Source: a virus. Taken from it: DNA of 64,000 nt. Shown piece after piece: positions 37,595-62,765 of this stretch. The stretch lies in the IMG/VR virus record IMGVR_UViG_3300045988_131786, positions 86,055-150,054 of that record, one strand, 5' to 3'. The notes under the pieces are model-generated. The model saw nothing but the letters and a program-made list of their open reading frames with translations, was not told the DNA's origin and made no database searches. Made by a program: the position numbers and the translations under genes. How positions within the stretch are numbered: position 1 is the stretch's first letter; the number at the start of each line of letters is the position of its first letter.

Positions 37595-37888
37595 TTAAAC
37601 TACATGTACATTTACACATGTTCCCATAAGACCATGAAATTCATTTACACAATAACAAAGATACTGATATTTAGACATTTTCTTTTCCTGCGGAGTTCCA
37701 TGAGCCTTTCTATCAGCTAAATAATCGTTTGCCATAACAAGTGGCATATTATATTCAAATGGTCTAATCAACATACCAGAAGTAGCTTCAACTTTTCGTT
37801 TTGCATCAGCTTTAGTATTTACTTTAACTTTATCATTTCCGTTATTAGTTCTTTTTACTTTTCCTTTAAAATTTCTTTTTTCTGCCAT
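37595..37888 (-). CDS. Hypothetical basic protein
   Basis: ORF. Confidence 0.35.
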   Translation of the reverse strand: MAEKRNFKGKVKRTNNGNDKVKVNTKADAKRKVEATSGMLIRPFEYNMPLVMANDYLADRKAHGTPQEKKMSKYQYLCYCVNEFHGLMGTCVNVHVV

Positions 37889-37903
37889 ATTATATATTCT
37901 CCT

Positions 37904-38411
37904 TTATTCTTCAAATGTCATCATTTTATCATCATCTAAAACATTGATAGAGACATTATCTATTTCTATTATATCATAATTATAAGTTGTAGCAAACATA
38001 GGTTCAATTCTACAAGTTCCTAAATCTGCTTTACAAAATAGGTAAATTCCTTTATACCTTCCTCGTCTATTTTTATATATTGATAATTTAATTGTTGGCG
38101 TATCAAAAGCATTTGTTGCTAAAATACTTTGAAGAGCTTCTAAATCTCTAGTTGTGACGCTAAGTAAAATACTACCATAATCAATTTTATCTGCGATTGA
38201 TTTTGCTCCACGAAGTAAATTCTGGTCAGGTGTTTCTGAATCTTTATAAGTCCCATTTAACTGAGTCGCAGACATAATAAAGATACCATATTGATTACAT
38301 AAATCTTTTAAGCGATTAGATAACATAAAAAGAATATTATCTTCTCTAAGTTTTACCCCACCGGAGCGTTTAGTTATCTCTTCAAGAATCTTTAGGCTAG
38401 TATGTATATAA
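37904..38411 (-). CDS. DnaB-like replicative helicase, exon 2 (C-terminal part). The upstream boundary is approximate.
   Basis: ...LSNRLKDLCNQYGIFIMSATQLNGTYKDSETPDQNLLRGAKSIADKIDYGSILL matches the DnaB region [29 protein letters not shown]...ADLIM. The in-frame extension upstream of the annotated Met (…HDYIHTSLKILEEITKRSGGVKLREDNILFM) continues the DnaB alignment. Confidence 0.6.
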
Positions 38412-39474
38412 TCGTGACGCGAACTTCTTATATTTCTATAAGCGCTGACTATCTCTTACTTAACTAATATAAGTTAAGGAAACCGTTTCGGCATTTAACT
38501 AGCTTCGTTACCTAAAACTAGACTATGTACTAATAATAGCCCTACTTCCCTGCCCAGAAGGCTTAGGGAATAGTCGATACAGGTTCTTTAGACGTTTTTC
38601 CAGGTTCTTTTTTTAATAATGTCTGCAACGGTTGATTTTGATATACCATAATTTTTAGCTAAATTTTCATAAGAAATATTATTTTTTTCTCTATCTTCCC
38701 TAATCTGTTTAACTAATTCAGCATTTAATTTAGTATGTCTTTTTCTAACTTTAAATACTTCTGGCATGATTAAACCATATCTTTTTCCAGACCATATATT
38801 TAAAAAAGAATTAAAATGTAGCCTATCTTTGTATTTCTCATTATATATTTTTGTTGGACTTTCATTATTTAGATAAGCTTTTCTAAGTTCAATAATTTCT
38901 GACTCTGTTAATTTTGCTTGACCCCAAATTTCTTTTTTTCTATGCTCTAAAGTTTTCGGTTTAGAGCAATTTTTCCCACCATCTTCTACATTATAACCAT
39001 TAGGAACTTTAGTATTATAAAAATTAATATAATATATTTCTAATTCATTTAAAATATTTATATCATCAATATCTTTTACCAAAATTTCATATTTAAAGCT
39101 TTCATATCCATATTTTCTAAAAGCTTTATGTAATAAAGAATTATAATCAGAATTATTTGGATTTTTATATGCTGATTTATGTGCTGCATATCTTGCTTTT
39201 GGATTCACAGTTTGTCCAATATATTTTTTATTATTTTTTAAATTTGTATAACAATATATAATTCCCATATGTTATACCTCCTTTCATAATTAATATGAAA
39301 GGAGTCAGAAATTATTTAACTACTTACGTCCAAAGTTTCCCACGGGACTCCCTTATTTTTCAATTTAGGGTCCCCCGTTAGCATACATACCATTGTTTTG
39401 GTGTATGTATACCCCTAGCAGTCACTAGGCAAAGTTTTTCATTGTCCCAACACCCTTTTAATAGGGTTGAACAC
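38412..39474 (-). mobile_element. Group I intron (boundaries approximate) interrupting the DnaB-like helicase gene and carrying a GIY-YIG homing endonuclease ORF
   Basis: The helicase reading frame is broken between the two exons. The intervening DNA contains GC-richer structured segments (agtttcccacggga..cccgttagc ; ctgcccagaaggcttagggaatagtc) that recur at about 90% identity in the second intron at 44080..45158. Confidence 0.6.
38588..39268 (-). CDS. GIY-YIG homing endonuclease (intron-encoded), with a C-terminal helix-turn-helix
   Basis: GIIYCYTNLKNNKKYIGQT...R...H (GIY-x10-YIG); EDGG; C-terminal HTH (ISKSTVADIIKKRTWKN). GGAGG RBS upstream. Confidence 0.8.
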   Translation of the reverse strand: MGIIYCYTNLKNNKKYIGQTVNPKARYAAHKSAYKNPNNSDYNSLLHKAFRKYGYESFKYEILVKDIDDINILNELEIYYINFYNTKVPNGYNVEDGGKNCSKPKTLEHRKKEIWGQAKLTESEIIELRKAYLNNESPTKIYNEKYKDRLHFNSFLNIWSGKRYGLIMPEVFKVRKRHTKLNAELVKQIREDREKNNISYENLAKNYGISKSTVADIIKKRTWKNV

Positions 39475-40509
39475 AAACCTAACATCATGGTCGCGAATAT
39501 TCCGCTTTATTGTATTTTCTATATCCTGCAAATTAAAGTCTGGTAGTTCTTCTACATATAAAGGAGCTTTTGAAAGAATTTCCGCAGCTTTGAGTACTCT
39601 ATCTTCCTCATCACCTTCATATTTACCATTTAAAATATGTTCTTCATTTACATTTGAAAGAAAAGCTAACATCATTGTTTGTATTTCTTCCAATTCCTGC
39701 TCAGTTGTAATAAATAAAGTAGGATTACAAGCCCCTGTACTTATCCAACCAAATGTTTCATTATATATATGACTACAAGCTATATAGCAAGCATCTGCCA
39801 CCATTGACCTTGTCTTGCCAATCCCCGTGGCGGCTGACCGCAAATAAAACTTCTTTAATCTTGCACCACGAGTAACTGTATTAATAAGAGGTCCATATAA
39901 TGGAACACCTACTTCTGGATATTGTTTAAATTTTTCAATTAAATCAAAAACACCTTCGCCCGCTTGCTCACTAGCATTTTGAACATCATCAACATATTGC
40001 ATTCTGATAAGTTCAATTTTATCATTCACTCTACTGGCTATGTCGGTTAAAGAACAATTATCAAGTAGCTCTTCTTGTTCTTGTTTCTTTTTCATATCTA
40101 ATATATTATCTGGATCATATATATCAGATACATCAATCCCAAAATTATCAAATGCTCTTAATAGAGTCATTTTTTTAAGTCGATTATAATAATAATCAAA
40201 AGCTAAAGGGGAAGCACCATCTGAGGCTTTAATTAACCACTCTTCACCTTTTTGCTGCTTATATAAAGCTCCACTAGTTGGATGTGTTTCAAAAAAATCA
40301 GATACAGTTTTTAAATTTACCTCTTTTGCGCCTTGCTCATGAATTTTATATAAAGCCCCAAAAACTATTTTATGAAATTCATTAGAAAAGTCTTCTTCAT
40401 TTATTGTATATCTATCTTTTTCATCTAATAAAGATAAATTTTTAAATACATTTCCTATAACTTGAACTATAGCCGAAACATCTACATATTTACTTGCCAT
40501 TAATATCAA
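39475..40509 (-). CDS. DnaB-like replicative helicase, exon 1 (N-terminal and RecA-like core). The 3' boundary is approximate.
   Basis: Walker A GIGKTRSMVADACYIA; APLYVEE (the DnaB APIYIDD region); ...RDHDVRFVF parallels DnaB RDHGGLSLIMIDY. Confidence 0.65.
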
Positions 40510-41014
40510 CCTCCTCGTCTAAAAAACTAAATTTCTTTTTTGATTTTTTAATTTTTCTTTGTGGCTGAGGGATTGTTATATTAATAGTTTTAGGTATATA
40601 ATTTTCAATATTTACTTCTGAATTTCTCTTATTAACGCTCCACATCTTATAGTAATAATTCTTAGCTTCTTCATATACATATGGAACTATTCCTATTGAA
40701 CGACTAGCTTCATCTTCAATAGCATTACCCTGTACTTCATAAAAATATATTAATGCTTTATGAATACCAGAATATGTAAAGCCTAATTCAGTTACATATT
40801 TTTTAATAAGCAAATTTGTTCTTGCAAAATCATATTTACCATTATATAAAGTATATAAATATTTGTTTAAATTTGCTTTATCAACTTCTGTTTGATTTAT
40901 TGGTCCCTCTGGACATTTTTTATGAGCATATCTTCTTGAACTCACTTGAATAAAAGGAACTTTATCCCTATCAAATTGTCGCCCACAATTAACACATTTA
41001 CAAGGATGTGCCAT
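40490..41014 (-). CDS. Zinc-ribbon protein, hypothetical
   Basis: CKCVNCGRQF...HKKC near the N-terminus. Confidence 0.35.
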   Translation of the reverse strand: MAHPCKCVNCGRQFDRDKVPFIQVSSRRYAHKKCPEGPINQTEVDKANLNKYLYTLYNGKYDFARTNLLIKKYVTELGFTYSGIHKALIYFYEVQGNAIEDEASRSIGIVPYVYEEAKNYYYKMWSVNKRNSEVNIENYIPKTINITIPQPQRKIKKSKKKFSFLDEEVDINGK

Positions 41015-41107
41015 TTCTTTTTCCTCATTTCAATTTATATATAAATATTAACATATTTTAATAAAAAAATCAAGATAAGATAACTTACCTTGATTTTTCA
41101 TTTGACT

Positions 41108-42085
41108 TTACAGCAAATCTTCTTTAATTTCAGAAACAATTAAATAAATAATCTCTGCTTGTTCTCTCGTAGCATCAGATACTTTCTTTCCTTTTCCGAG
41201 GTATTTATCTACAATTTCTGTAATTTTTTCGCTGTTTTTTGTATCTCTCTGCATCAGCTCTCCAACTACAGTCTGAAATTCTGCCATAAGGGCATCAAAG
41301 TCATAAGTTGGTGCTTCTGTTTTCTCCATTTTCTCTTCTGTCACAAATTTATTGTCATGCTCTGCGGCTTCCTTATCAATAGCTGCATGAATGGTATCAA
41401 CAAGGGCATTATAATTCATTTCAATACAATCAGGAATATACTTAAAACGACAACCGCACTCAATAAATCCTGTTCTATCTCTTAAAACAAGAATAGAATT
41501 TTCACTACCATTCTGTTTTGCATATCCATAGATATCAGCCATACCACCAATAATTTCTCTTGTGGAATTGGAAAGTGCTGGGCGAATATTTGTTACATTA
41601 CCATTATCGTCTTTTGCTTCCTTATCATGTCCAAGAAAGAAAACTGCATAACCAAGCTGTGTAAGCCCTCTAAATACTTCATTGAATTCGTCTTTAAACT
41701 TAGACCATCCTTTTCCATAACCAAGGTCTCCAAGCTCTTCAATTCCATTTTGCTGACAAATATATTTCTTACATTTATCTGCGGCAACATCAATAGTGTC
41801 AACTACAACTGCTTTATAAACCTCTTTTACTTCTGGCTTTTTAAGTTCTCTATAAACCTGTTTCATCTCGCCCCAAGTTGTAATATCCTGAGCCATTACA
41901 CCAGGAAGAGCATTATATCCTGCCTCAAAAGCTAAAAGCAAAGCCCCTTCCATCTGAGTTGCTAAAGTAGTTTTTCCAGTCTTATATCCGCCATAAAGAT
42001 AGGTTATATACCCGCTGAGGTCTTTACTAACTTTATGTGGTTGAATTCCTAATAAATTAATTCCCATTCTTTTTATCTCCCTCAA
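41108..42085 (-). CDS. Sak4-like (AAA_24 family) RecA-fold ATPase
   Basis: YLYGGYKTGKTTLA Walker A with LLLAFEAG following. Size about 325 aa. Confidence 0.55.
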   Translation of the reverse strand: MREIKRMGINLLGIQPHKVSKDLSGYITYLYGGYKTGKTTLATQMEGALLLAFEAGYNALPGVMAQDITTWGEMKQVYRELKKPEVKEVYKAVVVDTIDVAADKCKKYICQQNGIEELGDLGYGKGWSKFKDEFNEVFRGLTQLGYAVFFLGHDKEAKDDNGNVTNIRPALSNSTREIIGGMADIYGYAKQNGSENSILVLRDRTGFIECGCRFKYIPDCIEMNYNALVDTIHAAIDKEAAEHDNKFVTEEKMEKTEAPTYDFDALMAEFQTVVGELMQRDTKNSEKITEIVDKYLGKGKKVSDATREQAEIIYLIVSEIKEDLL

Positions 42086-42199
42086 TTATATATGCTACTT
42101 TATCTATTAGCTTTTTCAATGCCAGTAAAATTTTTACCAACATAAAAATCTTTATTTTAATATCTTCTTTTTTTAAAATACCACAATCATTAACTACAT

Positions 42200-42232
42200 A
42201 CATATCTAAAAGATATGTATGTAGAATTTTGA
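42200..42232. promoter_or_regulatory. Perfect 13-bp inverted repeat (ctacatacatatc taaaa gatatgtatgtag) in the intergenic region upstream of the Sak4-like gene
   Basis: Read directly from the sequence. No T-run follows on either strand, so it is more likely an operator or processing site than a terminator. Confidence 0.3.
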
Positions 42233-42267
42233 TTAAATCTTCAACAGTTAAATAACCATTTTACTTA

Positions 42268-43224
42268 TTAGAAATTAAAACCTCCGCTTGCAGAAACTGC
42301 TGGCTTAGCAGTAGCTGATGCCGCAACAGGTGCCTGATTAGCTTTCTGTTCTTTCCACTCGATTGCTCTCTGTTTTACTCCTGCAAGATATGTTTCTCTT
42401 TCTGAAACAAGCTCTGCAAGCTTCTCCGCAGTAATGAAATCTTCAGAATCCCATTCATAAGGTACTTTTGCACTTCTGGTAAGTACATATTCCTTACGAG
42501 TGGAAGTAGATTCTCTTACAATATCATCACCGAAAGCATTCTCTTCTCGAATCTCTTTAACAATAGTTGTATTAATCTGATTACCACTAACTTCAGTACA
42601 TAATGGATTTTGATTAGAAATTTCACATCCTTCAAAATAGTCCATAGCGTTGGTATTATAAACCATTAACTCAATTGGAAGAATCTGACCTCTAAAATCA
42701 AAACATACTCCACCAAGTGTCATTCTTTCTGGAAGCTTTCTTTCCTCATCTTCTTCAATTCTTGTTGCTCTAGTAATTACCATATCAAGAGTAAAATAAT
42801 TACGAGAAGAATCATTAATACCATCAGTAATTACATGAACGAATCCGCCTTCATTTCTTTTTGGAGAAGCTAATTTCCACTCTCCGCCATTCTCAGTATA
42901 AAAATCATTCAAACCAATAGCAGAATCAATTCTTAACTTTGCGGCTCCATCTTTTCCAACTTCCATTGCGGTTTTAAGACGACCTTCAATAATATCTTTT
43001 AAAACTGTAAACGTTGCATTTGATTTTCCTGATGAAGTTACTGCAGTTACATATGTGAAATGAAATTCAACAATATTTTTTAACTCCTCATCAGTGGCAA
43101 TTCCAATTGTTCCTCTAATGAATTCAGTCCCTGGTTTCTTTGAATTTGGACCACTTACTTTCATCTCTAACTCATGCTCATAAAGATATCCTTCTGCGTG
43201 AACTACATTTTTCATTTTCTTCAT
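42268..43224 (-). CDS. Hypothetical protein with an acidic/Ala-Ser-rich C-terminal tail, possibly a ssDNA-binding partner of the Sak4-like ATPase
   Basis: Position upstream of the Sak4-like gene; C-terminal tail ...ASGGFNF. The functional suggestion is weak. Confidence 0.3.
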   Translation of the reverse strand: MKKMKNVVHAEGYLYEHELEMKVSGPNSKKPGTEFIRGTIGIATDEELKNIVEFHFTYVTAVTSSGKSNATFTVLKDIIEGRLKTAMEVGKDGAAKLRIDSAIGLNDFYTENGGEWKLASPKRNEGGFVHVITDGINDSSRNYFTLDMVITRATRIEEDEERKLPERMTLGGVCFDFRGQILPIELMVYNTNAMDYFEGCEISNQNPLCTEVSGNQINTTIVKEIREENAFGDDIVRESTSTRKEYVLTRSAKVPYEWDSEDFITAEKLAELVSERETYLAGVKQRAIEWKEQKANQAPVAASATAKPAVSASGGFNF

Positions 43225-43260
43225 ATTATTTTTTCTCCTTTAAAATAAAATTTTAATTAA

Positions 43261-43617
43261 TTAAGATATTTCGATATTTTTTCCTTTTTCTGTAATCGCA
43301 TAAAGAACTGGGTCTTGCCCTACTTTATCTACAAAACCATCAGAGCAGAGCTTTCTAATTCCACCCGAAACAACTCTAGAAGAAACTAACAATCCTTCTC
43401 CTATATCTTTTGCTTTCCACACTTCTGTAGATGGATTATCTTGTAGGAACTTTAATATCATTTTTCCCATATCAGTTAATATTGGTTTTTCAGCTGAATC
43501 TGTTGTACTTTTAAAAAGTCTCCAATATTCAACTGCTTCTGGATCAAACTCTGATAAATCTTCTTTTTCATTCATCAAAGTATCAATCATATTAATAAAT
43601 TTTTCTTTTTTTGTCAT
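43261..43617 (-). CDS. Small winged-helix-like putative DNA-binding protein
   Basis: VSSRVVSGGIRKLCSDGFVDKVG resembles wHTH recognition helix-wing regions. Confidence 0.35.
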   Translation of the reverse strand: MTKKEKFINMIDTLMNEKEDLSEFDPEAVEYWRLFKSTTDSAEKPILTDMGKMILKFLQDNPSTEVWKAKDIGEGLLVSSRVVSGGIRKLCSDGFVDKVGQDPVLYAITEKGKNIEIS

Positions 43618-43690
43618 TTTTTAACTCTCTTTCATTAATTTATATATTAATGATATAAAATTTAATATATAAAATCCAATAAAAGATTTT

Positions 43691-44079
43691 TTATTCAAAC
43701 AAAAAGTCATCAGCATAAGGCAAATATTTCGCAAATTTAATAAAACTGTCTAATTCTGAATCTATTCCATCAGTTTTACTCCATTCAACAAGTTTATGCC
43801 CTTTTCTTTGCTGAATCATTGTACGAATATTTTCATAACTCATTGTTACTGTGCGAGTTTGGAGCCATGATTCTGGAAGCCAGCACACAAGCTCTTTCCA
43901 GTAACGTTTATCTTTAGTTGCCAGATATTTCTGACGCAAACCCTCAAGAAATTGAATAAGATAATCAATTTCTTCTCCAGAAGTAATAATATCTGGACAA
44001 TAATCTCCTGTTTCAAAGCAATCTAAAGTAATTGGTTTACTTGTAAGTTTATGCATTGTAGATGTAGAATTTGCGGTTG
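43691..44079 (-). CDS. ThyX-fold (FAD-dependent thymidylate synthase-like) protein, exon 2
   Basis: After splicing, the junction reads APLYW|WKEFDTYKIGTTANSTSTMHKL, aligning with ThyX [27 protein letters not shown]. The C-terminal LPESWLQTRTVTMSYENIRTMIQQRKGHKLVEW aligns with ThyX [34 protein letters not shown]. The ThyX sequences are recalled from memory. Confidence 0.55.
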
Positions 44080-45158
44080 TACCGATTTTGTAAGTATCAA
44101 ATTCCTTCCCATTTATGGACTATCTTTTACCCCTTTTGCAATAAAGGAGGATACCATTTCGACATTTAACTAACTTCGTTACCTAAAATTAGACTACGTA
44201 TCAATAGTAGCTCTACTTCCCTGCCCAAAAGGCTTAGGGAATAGTCTCTACAGGTTCTAATTATATTAAATCTTCAATAGTAAAATTTTGGTTATATTTA
44301 ATAATTTTCAATGGAATATTATGCTTTTCACAATATTCTCTTTTTCTCTTATCATTTTCAATAAGATTATCCCATTCTTTTCCCCAACTTCCTTCAGGTC
44401 TTAAATAATGTTGTAATCCATTAAATTCGATAAGACTTTTTAATTCTCCATTAGAAAATATTGCGAAATCGAATCTTAATCTTCTTCCACCAATTCCGTT
44501 TAAATCAGAAAAAGTGTATTGAGTAGAAAATTCATAATTTCCATCAATAAGCATTTTAGTAATTTTCTGTTCTCCTAAAGAATGAAGACATCCACAAGAT
44601 TGTATACCAACAGAACGTATATTGCTTCCTTTTGTTGTAAAAATATTTCCACAATGCTTACAAATACATTTCCAATGAGCAATTCCTTGCGGAGATGAGC
44701 CGTCTCTTTCAAGAACTTTAAAATTATCATCCTCATAACCAGTCATATCAACAACATTTTGAACGGCTTTTTCTTTTTGTAAACACCCGCATGATTGAGT
44801 ATGATTAGAATTAAGATTTCTTGTATCTACGTCTAATTCATTACCACAATCACAAATACAATGCCATTTACCACCTTTTATATAATATTGAGGTGTTAAT
44901 CGACCAAATTTTTTACCTGTTAAATCAACTCTTGGTTTAGATTTTCTTGTTTGTTTTTCCATATTAAATTATCTCCTTACTTTTTATCGTTCTATTATAT
45001 CTAAAAAGTATCCAAGTATAATTTAATAAGTTTGACACGATTTTTTATAATTAGTTTCCCACGGGATTCCAATGGGTGGTTCCCCGTTAGCTATATTTTA
45101 CAAAAATATAACCCTCGCTGATAAGCGAGCAAAGTATTTCATTGGCAGAAAGAATTCT
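44080..45158 (-). mobile_element. Group I intron in the ThyX-like gene, carrying a homing endonuclease ORF
   Basis: Exon 1 ends in U (..tac tgg t|) and the intron ends in G (..aaatg|gg aag), matching group I splice-site rules and restoring the ThyX alignment across the junction. The 5' and 3' structured segments are about 90% identical to the DnaB intron (38412..39474). Confidence 0.65.
44261..44962 (-). CDS. Intron-encoded homing endonuclease-like protein. Its N-terminal half has repeated zinc-ribbon CxxC pairs; its C-terminal domain is Vsr/EDxHD-like.
   Basis: CICDCG...CGCLQKE and CICKHCGN...CGCLHS Cys pairs. C-terminal RLRFDFAIFSNGELKSLIEFNGLQHY resembles very-short-patch-repair / EDxHD-type nuclease motifs. 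Confidence 0.5.
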   Translation of the reverse strand: MEKQTRKSKPRVDLTGKKFGRLTPQYYIKGGKWHCICDCGNELDVDTRNLNSNHTQSCGCLQKEKAVQNVVDMTGYEDDNFKVLERDGSSPQGIAHWKCICKHCGNIFTTKGSNIRSVGIQSCGCLHSLGEQKITKMLIDGNYEFSTQYTFSDLNGIGGRRLRFDFAIFSNGELKSLIEFNGLQHYLRPEGSWGKEWDNLIENDKRKREYCEKHNIPLKIIKYNQNFTIEDLI

Positions 45159-45579
45159 ACCAGTAGAGTGGAGCCGTAATGTCAACTGTTACCATAATTT
45201 GACGTAAAAATTTCCTATGCTCAGGACCTGCTTTAATTAAACGTTTAGCTAAATCCATATCATTTGGACCAATAAAAGCAACATTAGCTATTTGATGGTC
45301 AAAATCAATTTCAAGTAAACCATTTTTAAGTAACCATCTATCATAATCATCTGTTAAATCAGAAGAAGCTTTGCTATAAGTCTCTGGATAATCTGGGTCT
45401 TTGGTCTCTTGAACCCAAGTTTCCGCCACTAAATAATCCTGTTGACTGTCTTCTATATTAATCAAACCAAAAAAACTATCACTCTTATTCCAGCTCTCTA
45501 ATGGATTTCTCATTCCTCTAAGAGCAGGTCCAAAATTATAAGTTTTAATATTTTCAAACTTCATTCTTTTACCTTCCAT
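45159..45579 (-). CDS. ThyX-fold protein, exon 1
   Basis: GPALRGMRNPLESWNKS parallels ThyX GRACYQSWSKPNP. AGPEHRKFLRQIMVTVDITAPLYW parallels [20 protein letters not shown]. Confidence 0.55.
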
Positions 45580-45851
45580 TCTATAACTAATTTCATTTTC
45601 TGTTTTAATTCTACTTCTATAATTAACATATCATTATAACCAAAAGCAGTTTTGATTAATTTAAAATAACGATTATGAATTTCAATTATATCTTCTTTAG
45701 TAGACTTATCAGATTTACCATATTCTGCAACCATTAGGTCACTTATGGTAGGATAACCTTTATATAAATATGTTCGCGGTTTCCCATTATCATACCAAGA
45801 TAAAAAGGTATCACCTAATATATTTTTATTATAATTAGTAAAAAAATACAT
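45561..45851 (-). CDS. Hypothetical protein (96 aa)
   Basis: ORF overlapping the start of the ThyX-like exon 1. Confidence 0.35.
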   Translation of the reverse strand: MYFFTNYNKNILGDTFLSWYDNGKPRTYLYKGYPTISDLMVAEYGKSDKSTKEDIIEIHNRYFKLIKTAFGYNDMLIIEVELKQKMKLVIEWKVKE

Positions 45852-45864
45852 AAGTAATACCTCC

Positions 45865-46854
45865 TTATTTTATACTATAACCAAAATCTTTGGCATGAAA
45901 ATATTCTTGCCAATAATCTTCACGTTCATTTAATTCTTCTGGTTTTACTTTTTCAATTACTTCAAAAGTAAAATTTTCTGGTCCACTCTCTTGCATTGCT
46001 GGATATAATTTATTGCGGGTTGGCGTTTCTGCGCCTACTCCACGTTTGATATGCTGTCGCCAACGCTCTCGAATATTGACCGCCTGCCCAATATAACATT
46101 TTCCATCTAAAATATTTGTAATTTTATAAATACCTGTAATATCTTTATCTCCAATGACTCTACCAATTAAAGCATTATAAGGTTTTTCATAGTACACTTT
46201 ATAAATTACTTTATTAATAGCATCTGGATAACGAATATTAGAACTTACCTCACGTAGTTTTTTAATTTCTGCAACATCTTGTTCTGATAATTGGAGTCTA
46301 TAAAAATCTTGCTGAGACTCTTTTTCTTCTTCACGTTTTTTAGCTTCAACAGCCGCATCTACAAGAGACTTATATTTTTCTAATTCATTTCGGAATTGAA
46401 GAATTTCATTTTTTTTATTTTTAGAATCTTCATTAAAACCTTTTACAATTTCTTCAACAGATTTTAAATAAGCATCTTTATAAGAACTTCTATCTTCTTC
46501 AAGTTTAGCAGATAATTTTTCTGCTTCTCTATCATAAGTATCATTTAATCCATTAATAAATTCTTGTAACTTCATAGATTCTTTATTATAAGAGTCTTTT
46601 AACTTTGTAATTTCACTCGTATAATTAAAAGATTCTTTAGTCAATGCTCTAAGAGTACCTCTCATTTTAGCTATTTTAGATTCATAATCTTCATTAGTTA
46701 AATTAAGAAATTGTTTATTAGATTCTAATTCTTCAATATCAAATTCTAATAATGATTTAGTTTTCTTTAATTTTGAAATTTGATAAATTTCCAGACAAAT
46801 TATAATCAAACCTAAAATACCTAAGAAAAACATTATTAAATATAATACATTCAT
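45865..46854 (-). CDS. Membrane-anchored coiled-coil protein with a C-terminal GIY-YIG nuclease domain
   Basis: N-terminal transmembrane helix VLYLIMFFLGILGLIIICL; about 180 aa of coiled coil (KLKDSYNKESMKLQEFINGL...); C-terminal GIYKITNILDGKCYIGQAVNIRERWRQH...ENFTFEVIEKV...REDYWQ. Confidence 0.6.
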   Translation of the reverse strand: MNVLYLIMFFLGILGLIIICLEIYQISKLKKTKSLLEFDIEELESNKQFLNLTNEDYESKIAKMRGTLRALTKESFNYTSEITKLKDSYNKESMKLQEFINGLNDTYDREAEKLSAKLEEDRSSYKDAYLKSVEEIVKGFNEDSKNKKNEILQFRNELEKYKSLVDAAVEAKKREEEKESQQDFYRLQLSEQDVAEIKKLREVSSNIRYPDAINKVIYKVYYEKPYNALIGRVIGDKDITGIYKITNILDGKCYIGQAVNIRERWRQHIKRGVGAETPTRNKLYPAMQESGPENFTFEVIEKVKPEELNEREDYWQEYFHAKDFGYSIK

Positions 46855-60827: not shown

Positions 60828-61390
60828 CTACACAGCTTTTTGTTCATTAAATTTAATTTTCATATCTTCAATAATTGTATCTAAAGAAACTGGAAAACAA
60901 TTATGTGCATCAACTGCTACATTATACAGATATGAAATATTATTATAAAACTTATCTTTAAAATGCGTATGACCCGAAAGCCCGCAAATAGCTTGATGAA
61001 GAGATTTAATTTCTCCATTACTTGTTACTGTTGGATAATGACTTAAATAAAAATGATATTTTTTATATTTAAGCATTGTAGCATATCCTTCATCAATAAT
61101 GCCGATTTCAGAGTAAAGGCGGCATCGAGTCGAGGTATCGTGATTCCCACGAACGAAATGTTTATTTCCATTTAATTGCCGCAGACATTCAAGTCCATGT
61201 TCATTATCGCATAACATCAAATCACCAAGAATATACAAATCGTCTTCTGGTTTTACGATTGAATTAAAATTCTTAATAATTGCTTCATTATGCTCTTCAA
61301 CAGAAGTAAAACCTCTTGGTTCATAAATAAAATCTTTATTATGACCTAACCAAAGTGGAGATCACTTGTTAAATAAATCATTCCACTCAT
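60828..61390 (-). pseudogene. Calcineurin-like metallophosphoesterase whose frame breaks about 15 codons after the start. It could be a frameshifted pseudogene, a sequencing indel or a recoding site.
   Basis: Frame A 61390..61346 reads MSGMIYLTSDLHFG then a stop. Frame B, at -1, continues WLGHNKDFIYEPRGFTSVEEHNEAIIKNFNSIVKPEDDLYILGD...GNHD...GHTH. Confidence 0.5.
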
Positions 61391-61391
61391 T

Positions 61392-62135
61392 TTATTCTTC
61401 ACCAACCTTTCTCCATATTCGTCCTCCTACGGTTGAATACCGAGAAGAACCAGCTATACATTTTCCAATGCTTTGTCTATTTATTTTTTCTACTCTTGAT
61501 GCTTCACTAATACTATCATAATAAACAATATCTTTAGGATTATCTTTTTTTATACCATAAATAGCAGTTCTCCTTTTTCGAGTTTTCATTTCTGGAATAA
61601 TAACTTTATTATTTTCATCTAAATAACGAAAAATTAATCCATTACAAGAATAAACGTCTCCATCGCAAATTTGTTTAACTGAACTTGCTCTTGCGTCTCT
61701 ATCCCAACCTTGTTTTTCAGCTGCGTCATGAAGAGAATTATAAATTTCTAAAATTTCATTTTTTTCATTTACTAAAGCACATTTTTTACTAACTTTTTTA
61801 ATATATTTTTGAGTATTTTCATGTGCAAGAGAATTTGATGTTGTGCAAGTTGTTTGATTATATCCGTTAGGAACTAAAGAACTATAATGAATAATTTCAT
61901 AATGCTCATAACCCTGCATTTCTTCTATTGTTAAAAAATCATCTTTTAAAATTTCAAAAGAAAAATTTTTAACTCCATATTTTCTAAAAGCCTTATACAA
62001 GGGATAATTATACTGAGGATTATTTTTATTAAAAGCGGCATTAATATGCTCTTTCCATCTTTTATTAACCCTTGTACTAGAACCAATATAAATTTTATTA
62101 TTTATTTTATTAGTAATTTTATAAACAGTTTTCAT
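61392..62135 (-). CDS. Free-standing GIY-YIG homing endonuclease (Seg-like)
   Basis: VYKITNKINNKIYIGSS...R...H...N motifs. Its stop codon abuts the start of the phosphoesterase gene. Confidence 0.75.
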   Translation of the reverse strand: MKTVYKITNKINNKIYIGSSTRVNKRWKEHINAAFNKNNPQYNYPLYKAFRKYGVKNFSFEILKDDFLTIEEMQGYEHYEIIHYSSLVPNGYNQTTCTTSNSLAHENTQKYIKKVSKKCALVNEKNEILEIYNSLHDAAEKQGWDRDARASSVKQICDGDVYSCNGLIFRYLDENNKVIIPEMKTRKRRTAIYGIKKDNPKDIVYYDSISEASRVEKINRQSIGKCIAGSSRYSTVGGRIWRKVGEE

Positions 62136-62237: not shown

Positions 62238-62765
62238 TCACTGGTCAGGTAAATCAATTGTAATACCTCCTTCATTTACTTTAGCGATTGCAAAATAAGT
62301 ATATTTTTCAGAAAAAGTTGGTTTTTCAAACTGTTCATTCATTCTACGAATAACTCCTCTAGGAACATAAGCGAGTTCATCGTTTTTTCTTAATTCATTT
62401 CTGCTTAAACAAGTTTCAAGAGGAAGCTCAAAGCTAAAAGGAATAATTTTAACATCTTTAAGATTTAAACTATCAAGTAATTTATTTCTTGATTTCTGAT
62501 TAAGCTGAGTAGCATCCGCAATAACAAAATCAATTTTTTCATCAAGATATTTCTGAATAGTATCAATATATTCTTTCCAAACTTCTTTTTCTTTATCAAA
62601 ATATTGAATATTTTTATTTTCACGAAGTTTAGCAAAACGAATAGCATCTCTTGAAACTATTTCAAAAGTATTCTTTCCAATTCCGTCTACAATTTCTTTT
62701 ATAGAACGAAAAGTAGTAGATTTTCCAGAACCAGGTATTCCACAAGCAACATATAAAGTTGTCAT
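62238..62765 (-). CDS. P-loop polynucleotide kinase-like (AAA_33 / Pnk N-terminal domain-like) protein
   Basis: LYVACGIPGSGKSTTF Walker A plus RDAIR. About 175 aa, as in the kinase domains of T4 Pnk-like enzymes. Confidence 0.5.
   Translation of the reverse strand: MTTLYVACGIPGSGKSTTFRSIKEIVDGIGKNTFEIVSRDAIRFAKLRENKNIQYFDKEKEVWKEYIDTIQKYLDEKIDFVIADATQLNQKSRNKLLDSLNLKDVKIIPFSFELPLETCLSRNELRKNDELAYVPRGVIRRMNEQFEKPTFSEKYTYFAIAKVNEGGITIDLPDQ

Follow-up and report, generated by a model that had tools for sequence, protein, structure and literature searches.

Two probable group I introns of one ribozyme family carry unrelated endonuclease genes in a phage genome, with modular cargo turnover across the phage population

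Phage T4 harbors IA-type group I introns in several of its DNA-metabolism genes (td, nrdB and nrdD, also called sunY), with the different endonucleases I-TevI, I-TevII and I-TevIII, and in T4 a hairpin that covers the ribosome-binding site holds back translation of the endonucleases. Group IA introns also occupy several sites of one operon, nrdE/nrdF, in the Bacillus cereus group; their open reading frames (ORFs) start in P6a, ORF-containing and ORF-deleted forms differ by strain, and horizontal transfer has been inferred (Nord and Sjoberg 2007, PMC2248736). By current consensus, endonuclease genes entered ORF-free introns in independent invasions (PMC3984707). Here we describe a locus in a 64,000-nt stretch of viral DNA (positions 86,055 to 150,054 of IMG/VR record IMGVR_UViG_3300045988_131786; hereafter, the window), in which a dnaB-like replicative helicase gene and a gene for a putative ThyX-fold protein are each interrupted by an ORF-containing element. 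Both elements are very probably mobile, self-splicing group I introns of the IA type, their splicing being read from anatomy, and their ribozyme cores and P6a-ORF cassettes appear to have had separate histories.

All genes across 36-47 kb of the window lie on the minus strand, as do all the features of this region located below. Exon 1 of the helicase gene (39470..40509) matches Pfam DnaB and DnaB_C and ends in ...GUG UU; the frame runs on in exon 2 (37904..38417) as HDYIHTSLKILEE..., free of indels relative to intron-less homologs. Between them lies intron 1, of 1052 nt (38418..39469), with a U.G pair at the 5’ splice site in P1 and a terminal G. The insertion point falls between VRFVF and HDYIHTS, in the Walker B region of DnaB, and excision of 39469..38418 fuses ...DVRFVF with HDYIHTS.... 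Once spliced, DnaB needs no indels to align with its uninterrupted counterparts in Enterococcus phage VRE9_3 and SPbeta (YorI), and shares 98% protein identity with the uninterrupted helicase of L009, a related phage in IMG/VR (L-numbers denote related loci throughout). Alternative junctions after g5 or g12 of GUUCGCGUCACG were rejected: compared with homologs, their products are one residue short or lack the context of the Walker B aspartate.

The second host gene is made up of exon 1 (45159..45579), which ends in ...UGG U, and exon 2 (43691..44109), separated by intron 2, of 1049 nt (44110..45158), with a P1 fold and a terminal G. Its insertion point lies between APLYW and WKEFDTYK. Excision of 45158..44110 yields a 279-aa protein that is colinear with, and 93% identical to, a contiguous 279-aa database protein (P0121), and that is also colinear with a protein of bajarodcaudo virus 5. 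Fourteen distinct intron-less alleles of this site read TGG|TGGAA, and the junction is identical in 15 distinct intron-containing alleles. The protein belongs to PHROG 6721, a family of unknown function. A first-pass annotation of the window had called the gene ThyX-like, a label that holds, weakly, at the level of the modelled fold and does not extend to a family match: the ThyX signature (RHR...S...SxR) gave no Pfam match at E<=0.1 and no NCBIfam match at E<=1, and by eye the expected motif position carries TYK..ANSTSTMH.

At both sites, the last base of the 5’ exon is a U that is wobble-paired in P1 to a G of the internal guide sequence. The introns end in ...UUCGCG| and ...AUAAAUG|, each with a terminal G, and ligation restores the reading frames. 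At the ThyX site, P1 forms as UGGU|AGAA..UUCUGCCA (-10.4 kcal/mol, z=-5.9). At the dnaB site of L006, a synonymous exon change from GUG to GUA (base -3, G to A) is matched by a change of the guide from GACA to GAUA, so that pairing is kept. In-frame stop codons follow soon after each 5’ splice site: a UAG spans the ThyX-site junction (45156-45158), and a UGA lies ten codons into the dnaB intron (39439-39441). These early stops fit a ribosome-stalling idea mentioned in PMC3984707.

The core RNA structure was derived by hand on an alignment of 17 ORF-deleted cores taken from the window and from related contigs, and has 49 pairs that form nine helices, the P3/P7 pseudoknot among them. Of all cells, 96.2% are paired, where shuffles give 83.0 +/- 0.8%; 25 pairs show changes on both sides (16.6 in shuffles), and the covariation score is 0.393 (0.158 in shuffles). 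None of 500 shuffles reached the observed value of any of these three measures, and sliding the 3’ partners by 1-3 columns, as a control, left only 37-45% paired. P3, P4 and P6 each covary, and P7 is invariant. Helices P1 to P9 could be mapped, as the first-pass annotation had proposed, and both ORFs were placed in the P6a loop. The order is P1, the P3 5’ strand, two hairpins that we call X and Y, J3/4, P4, P5, P4’, P6 and P6a with its ORF; then P6’, J6/7, P7, P7.1, P7.2, P7.3, P3’, P8, J8/7 and P7’; and, in the dnaB intron only, P9.

In intron 1, the 5’ core (39335..39469) contains the P1 3’ strand and guide sequence (39443-39456), the P3 5’ strand AAACU (39433-39437), hairpin X (39414-39429), hairpin Y (39381-39412), J3/4-P4 (39373-39380), P5 (39350-39370) and P4’ (39342-39347), followed by the P6 5’ strand. 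Its 3’ core (38418..38594) begins with the P6a 3’ strand (38586-38594), continues through P6’/J6/7, P7 (38570-38575), P7.1 (38547-38569), P7.2 (38521-38541), P7.3 (38500-38520), P3’ GGUUU (38480-38484), P8 (38459-38478), J8/7-P7’ (38447-38458) and P9 (38427-38443), and closes with the terminal G (38418). The 5’ core of intron 2 (45054..45158) is built likewise, from the P1 3’ strand (45143-45150), the P3 5’ strand AUACU (45133-45137), X (45114-45129), Y (45090-45112), J3/4-P4 (45082-45089), P5 (45069-45079) and P4’ (45061-45066) to the P6 5’ strand. In its 3’ core (44110..44265), the P6a 3’ strand (44257-44265), P6’/J6/7 and P7 precede P7.1 (44218-44240), P7.2 (44192-44212), P7.3 (44171-44191), P3’ GGUAU (44151-44155), P8 (44130-44149), J8/7-P7’ (44118-44129) and the terminal G (44110); no P9 hairpin was found in this 3’ core. 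The P7.1 and P7.2 hairpins, which stand between P7 and the P3 3’ strand, both covary, and the sequence context, GACUAU..AGUAG..GAAAY..AUAGUC, matches that of td. These hairpins and sequence contexts point to an IA2-like intron. Taken together, the two elements are very likely group I introns of the IA type and members of one ribozyme family that is common in gut Firmicutes phages.

Each ORF fills the P6a loop of its intron, and in both introns the stop codon lies within the P6a 3’ strand. P6 is GGG/CCU in both, followed by an A-rich internal loop, and covaries among relatives (GGC/GCC, GGC/GCU, GUG/CAU). The P6a stems, CUUUGGACG/CGUCUAAAG and CUAAUUAUA/UAUAAUUAG, are unrelated in sequence and both pair. 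ORF 1 (38588..39268) encodes a 226-aa GIY-YIG protein with a C-terminal helix-turn-helix, matched by Pfam GIY-YIG PF01541 (28.2 bits; cut-off 22.6), HTH_3 (24.4 bits; cut-off 23), PHROG 7168 “homing endonuclease” (5e-34) and, over its full length, TIGR01453 “group I intron endonuclease” (65.6 bits; cut-off 56.05). A hairpin covers its Shine-Dalgarno sequence (CUCCUUUCAUA/UAUGAAAGGAG, 39278..39304; -15.7 kcal/mol, z=-3.8) and, by eye, is kept with compensating changes in L063, L065 and L066; ORF 2 is likewise preceded by a Shine-Dalgarno-covering hairpin (z=-2.7).

ORF 2 (44261..44962; 233 aa) is a nuclease of Vsr/I-Bth0305I-like (EDxHD) fold behind zinc-ribbon-like modules. Its C-terminal part shows a Vsr-like nuclease fold, and its N-terminus consists of two cysteine-rich beta modules (CxCxC...SCGC; three in some homologs) rather than NUMOD. 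Among 24 homologs, E131, D165, N181 and H185 are invariant and D204 is conserved in at least 90%. These are candidate catalytic residues, in the same order as the EDxHD motif of I-Bth0305I, the composite E...D...(N/H)...H...D defined in PMC3239194. No PDB chain was matched by phmmer or profile, and no Pfam domain was found in this protein.

We then compared the two introns of the window. The first-pass annotation had described their 5’ and 3’ segments as about 90% identical, with unrelated endonucleases inserted; the strings that it quoted are correct and present at the positions it gave. For the 3’ segments the figure stood: a repeat search returned a 111-nt block running from P6’ to P3’ (38477..38587 and 44148..44258) at 88% identity, and the 3’ halves are 79% identical over aligned columns (66% with gaps counted). 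For the 5’ halves it did not, as these are 62% identical over aligned columns and 46% with gaps counted, and their correspondence is limited to J3/4-P4 (12/13), P4’-P6 (14/15) and the CAAUGAAAnACUUUGC element. Aligned with the ORFs deleted, the cores are 72.5% identical over aligned columns; the similarity is real and had been overstated. In hairpins X, Y, P5, P8 and P9 the two introns have different sequences, yet pairing is retained. The 111-nt block is structured core RNA (P6’ through P7, P7.1, P7.2, P7.3 and P3’), and the shared segments are intronic, neither low-complexity sequence nor exon; the 34-nt core string GACTATTCCCTAAGCCTTYTGGGCAGGGAAGTAG has exactly two occurrences in the window and none in 100 dinucleotide-preserving shuffles. 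The ORFs are unrelated (BLASTP E=0.23), and the labels first given to them, GIY-YIG in one and zinc-ribbon plus Vsr/EDxHD-like in the other, were right. As part of the same model, which we hold to be very probable, the similarity would represent the conserved catalytic core of a family, not a recent copy made within this genome.

A pattern scan of IMG/VR, together with a DnaB-based scan, yielded 69 related loci, and a search among related phages, which the first-pass annotation had suggested, showed intron-less, ORF-less and ORF-containing alleles at both sites. At the dnaB site (residue 344/345), the GIY-YIG intron is present in the window, L063, L065, L066, L069 and L073; L006 and L007 carry a 348-nt ORF-less intron; and most other loci have no intron there, including L009, L010 and L020. 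These three are the nearest relatives of the window phage, and they lack both introns. The 15 intron-containing alleles of the ThyX-fold site range from 270 to 1282 nt. Introns without an ORF occur there in L012, L098 and L182, those with an EDxHD-type ORF in the window, L005, L008, L063 and L135, and one with an HNH endonuclease in L127; others have other small ORFs.

Intron 2 is 97.2-97.6% identical to its counterparts in L005 and L008; identity of the exons is 70-75% and reaches 88-92% within the 60 nt beside the site. Such a pattern, with highly similar introns, diverged exons and raised identity in the flanks, is classically left by horizontal homing with co-conversion. The corresponding comparison at dnaB, between the window and the intron-less L009, L010 and L020, showed differences with no clear clustering at the junction.

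Cores and cassettes can be traced to different relatives. The cores of the window dnaB intron are 85% identical to those of the ORF-less L006 intron, and its P6a-ORF cassette is 76-77% identical to the cassettes of L063 and L066, two introns with cores that share only 59-64% identity with the window’s. L073 is a mosaic, with a 5’ core of L063 type (91%) and a 3’ core of L067 type (95%), and in L063 the introns at both sites share one core type. Over about 170 conserved columns in the 17 cores, the core closest to the dnaB intron (92%) was that of the ORF-less intron found at the same site in L006 and L007. For the ThyX-site intron, the closest were the dnaB-site intron of L073 (87%, and 91% in the 3’ part) and the L067 intron, which interrupts a GIY-domain gene (90% in the 3’ part). 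On the same columns, the two window introns are 82% identical to each other. To judge by these sequences, endonuclease type follows insertion site and core type does not. The comparisons support modular cargo turnover within an intron family that has apparently been shared and recombined across the phage population.

Several observations weigh against the reading set out so far. The nearest-neighbor analysis rests on identity matrices, not on a formal phylogeny or recombination test. The two window introns alone share two or three P7.1 states (UAAG...CAGG), absent from L006, L012 and L073, which may hint at exchange within the genome. P1 at the dnaB site (UGUU|C..GGGACA) is energetically weak (z=-1.1). 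Finally, Rfam found no intron in the whole window at the gathering threshold (50 bits for Intron_gpI, RF00028), nor in 37800-45800 at E<=10, and did not match the ORF-less ThyX-type intron of L012. With the ORF-less L006 intron, Intron_gpI aligned over its full length in a 381-nt search, at 28.8 bits (E=1.3e-5), below the gathering score; a search of 10.5 kb of L006 and of L007 at E<=1 found no intron. We attribute the failure on the window to the ORFs, which split the model. In the RF00028 alignment of the L006 intron, the model’s canonical P3 5’ strand is deleted and left unpaired, which agrees with the relocated P3 described below.

The first-pass annotation had proposed that a single intron lineage spread within this genome and then exchanged its endonuclease. 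In such a scenario, the intron would have moved to the second site by reverse splicing or ectopic homing, with an endonuclease swap to follow, and the common family, the common unusual architecture, the 88% block and the P7.1 states are all compatible with it. Each window core, however, has closer relatives in other phages (92% for dnaB and 87-91% for the ThyX site, against 82% between the two), so that spread within the genome followed by a cargo swap is not supported. Moreover, the closest phage relatives lack both introns; an identity of 97% for the ThyX-site intron, ORF included, in phages with exons some 25-30% diverged points to horizontal homing; and the two introns show no sequence relationship in the peripheral helices P1, X, Y, P5, P8 and P9. 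We therefore consider this scenario unlikely. The exchange of endonuclease cargo that it included is borne out as modular turnover across the phage population, and not as a swap after duplication in this genome.

Partial gene conversion between the copies (concerted evolution) could instead have homogenized the 111-nt block while the rest diverged. Identity is indeed focused in one block (88%, against 33-57% in adjacent hairpins), a few P7.1 states are uniquely shared, and the L063 introns at both sites share a core type. However, the block is the most conserved part of the intron family-wide, at 83-95% between different phages and sites, so conservation alone accounts for the pattern; and an identity of 88% gives no sign of a recent conversion tract. 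We regard conversion as slightly less probable still than movement within the genome. That the shared segments are repeated exon, regulatory or low-complexity sequence has in its favor the lack of a gathering-level Rfam match in the window, and can be dismissed as highly improbable, since intron-less alleles exist, the host proteins are colinear with uninterrupted homologs, the helices are backed by covariation and the core string never arose in shuffles.

We favor, then, two introns whose cores and cassettes moved separately, and their anatomy suggests how they would work. The transcript would fold into the P3-P9 core, an external guanosine would attack at the U.G pair of P1, and exon joining after the terminal G would restore both reading frames. 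A hairpin over the ribosome-binding site of each P6a-looped endonuclease ORF would restrain its translation. The enzymes would cut intron-less alleles in mixed infections, and repair would copy the intron in. Cassettes would be gained, lost and exchanged by recombination in the conserved P6a flanks (GGGAAAC ... GAACCUGUA).

The arrangement around P3 does not follow the canonical IA2 order P1-P2-P3-J3/4-P4. In the window introns, the P3 5’ strand directly follows P1, and the covarying hairpins X and Y intervene between P3 and J3/4 (39381-39437 and 45090-45137); the loop of X is close to UAAUCAG. One position of P3 is AU in 8 cores, UA in 4, CG in 2, GC in 1 and UG in 1. In 73 distinct IMG/VR introns, the best complement to P3’ was never 3 nt or less from J3/4, where the td control gave a distance of 0. 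The permutation control of this survey was only moderate (scores of 6 or more in 63% of true and 34% of permuted pairings) and the unanchored search is noisy, misplacing the window ThyX-site intron, so we treat it as supporting evidence beside the covariation. Enterococcus phages EF5 (L074) and VRE9_3 (L075) have the same P3 layout with new pairings, AAUGGUU/AGCCAUU and AAUCUUU/GGAGAUU. P7.2 is followed by a further hairpin, P7.3; its stem covaries, its loop, UUUAGG(U/A)AACGAA, is nearly invariant, and the conserved loop spans 13-15 nt (UUUAGGnAACGAA). P7.3 occurs in both window introns, L006, L012, L073 and EF5, and is absent from the short-type introns of L063, L065, L066 and VRE9_3. It might provide a tertiary contact or a site for protein binding.

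The family numbers at least 119 IMG/VR loci, besides the two Enterococcus phages. A literature search that did not extend to curated collections of group I structures found a single precedent for material between P3 and P4, in the yeast mitochondrial COX1 intron aI5beta, described as “noncanonical sequence inserted between P3 and P4” (PMC2396411), and nothing relevant on “P3.1/P3.2” or on phage dnaB introns. Tentatively, and with rather less than even confidence, we suggest that the family might constitute an undescribed IA subclass (no P2, displaced P3, X and Y, and P7.3), abundant in gut Firmicutes phages, largely invisible to Rfam and perhaps carrying non-nuclease cargo in addition to three nuclease families.

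Other introns and insertions were seen in the relatives. A 329-aa gene with a C-terminal GIY-YIG domain is intron-less in the window (45865-46854, minus strand). In its homologs in L029 (3501-4652), L055 (1523-2662), L057 (1785-3003) and L067 (1757-2894), a member of the intron family interrupts the GIY-YIG motif region (GQAV|NI..RERW) and brings a third cargo, an ORF for a 298-aa GIY-YIG protein. Further dnaB insertions, both ORF-less (~305 nt) and ORF-containing (~1.1 kb), lie near residues 230 (L055/L056/L067), 401 (L061) and 421 (L054/L058/L073); the dnaB of L073 has two, and only the L061 insertion was recognized as belonging to the same core family. Among the ThyX-site introns of L160, L175, L176, L171, L165, L178 and L191, some hold ORFs that lack a nuclease signature and others look degenerate; the non-nuclease ORFs match PHROG 774 and PHROG 38171 (unknown function), with one weak acetyltransferase-like match. 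In cultured Enterococcus phages, an unannotated family intron divides the DNA polymerase III alpha gene of EF5 into separate coding sequences (MF001361.1, ~127200-128190), and another is present in VRE9_3 (PP680569.1, ~135720-136710). Prevotella Lak megaphages gave 61-nt matches to the P7.2-P7.3 region; a megablast of the region against the phage collection returned no match.

Elsewhere in the window, a free-standing gene for a 247-aa GIY-YIG and NUMOD endonuclease (61392-62135, minus strand) is flanked by a polynucleotide-kinase-like gene (62765..62238) and a metallophosphoesterase gene (60828-61390, minus strand). The metallophosphoesterase frame is broken after 14 codons (...GAU CUC CAC UUU GGU UAG) and resumes 5 nt later (CAU AAU AAA...). 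This break, right beside the endonuclease gene, may reflect an insertion of 5 nt, a -1 frameshift, an error in sequencing or decay into a pseudogene.

Together with its relatives, the locus forms a natural series at two fixed sites, from empty alleles through ORF-less introns to introns with varied cargo, and, with its visible shuffling of cores and cassettes, it can serve as a system in which to study the invasion of introns by homing endonuclease genes and the loss of these genes from them. Because family introns escape Rfam, helicase, polymerase and other genes are split into “hypothetical” fragments, an annotation blind spot that affects metagenomic and cultured phage genomes alike. The accepted picture of intron and endonuclease modularity is unchanged by these findings, as independent endonuclease invasion is already the consensus.

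The closest parallel is with T4, in which several IA-type cores likewise occupy the DNA-metabolism genes of one phage with different endonucleases. As in td, the ORFs are looped out of P6a; as in Twort and td, P7.1 and P7.2 are present; and ORF 1, through its TIGR01453 match, is of the I-TevI type. However, BLAST shows no nucleotide similarity to the T4 introns, the host genes differ, and the P3 5’ strand, which abuts J3/4 in td, follows P1 here, with two hairpins between and an extra P7.3. The nrdE/nrdF introns resemble those of the window in being multi-site group IA introns with variable presence of ORFs, ORFs in P6a and inferred horizontal transfer; unlike them, they reside in bacterial chromosomal genes, and the intron and endonuclease sequences differ. 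ORF 2 recalls I-Bth0305I, the EDxHD endonuclease of the recA intron of Bacillus phage 0305phi8-36, but has no sequence-level match to its structure (3r3p), and the I-Bth0305I ORF was placed in P5 (PMC3239194) whereas the window ORFs are in P6a. The N-terminal DNA-binding part of ORF 2 is two cysteine-rich beta modules, not NUMOD2/HTH, and adds a new DNA-binding architecture to the small EDxHD family. Finally, aI5beta shares extra material between P3 and P4; there it is a large insertion in an organellar, protein-dependent intron, and here it is a pair of small covarying hairpins in phage introns.

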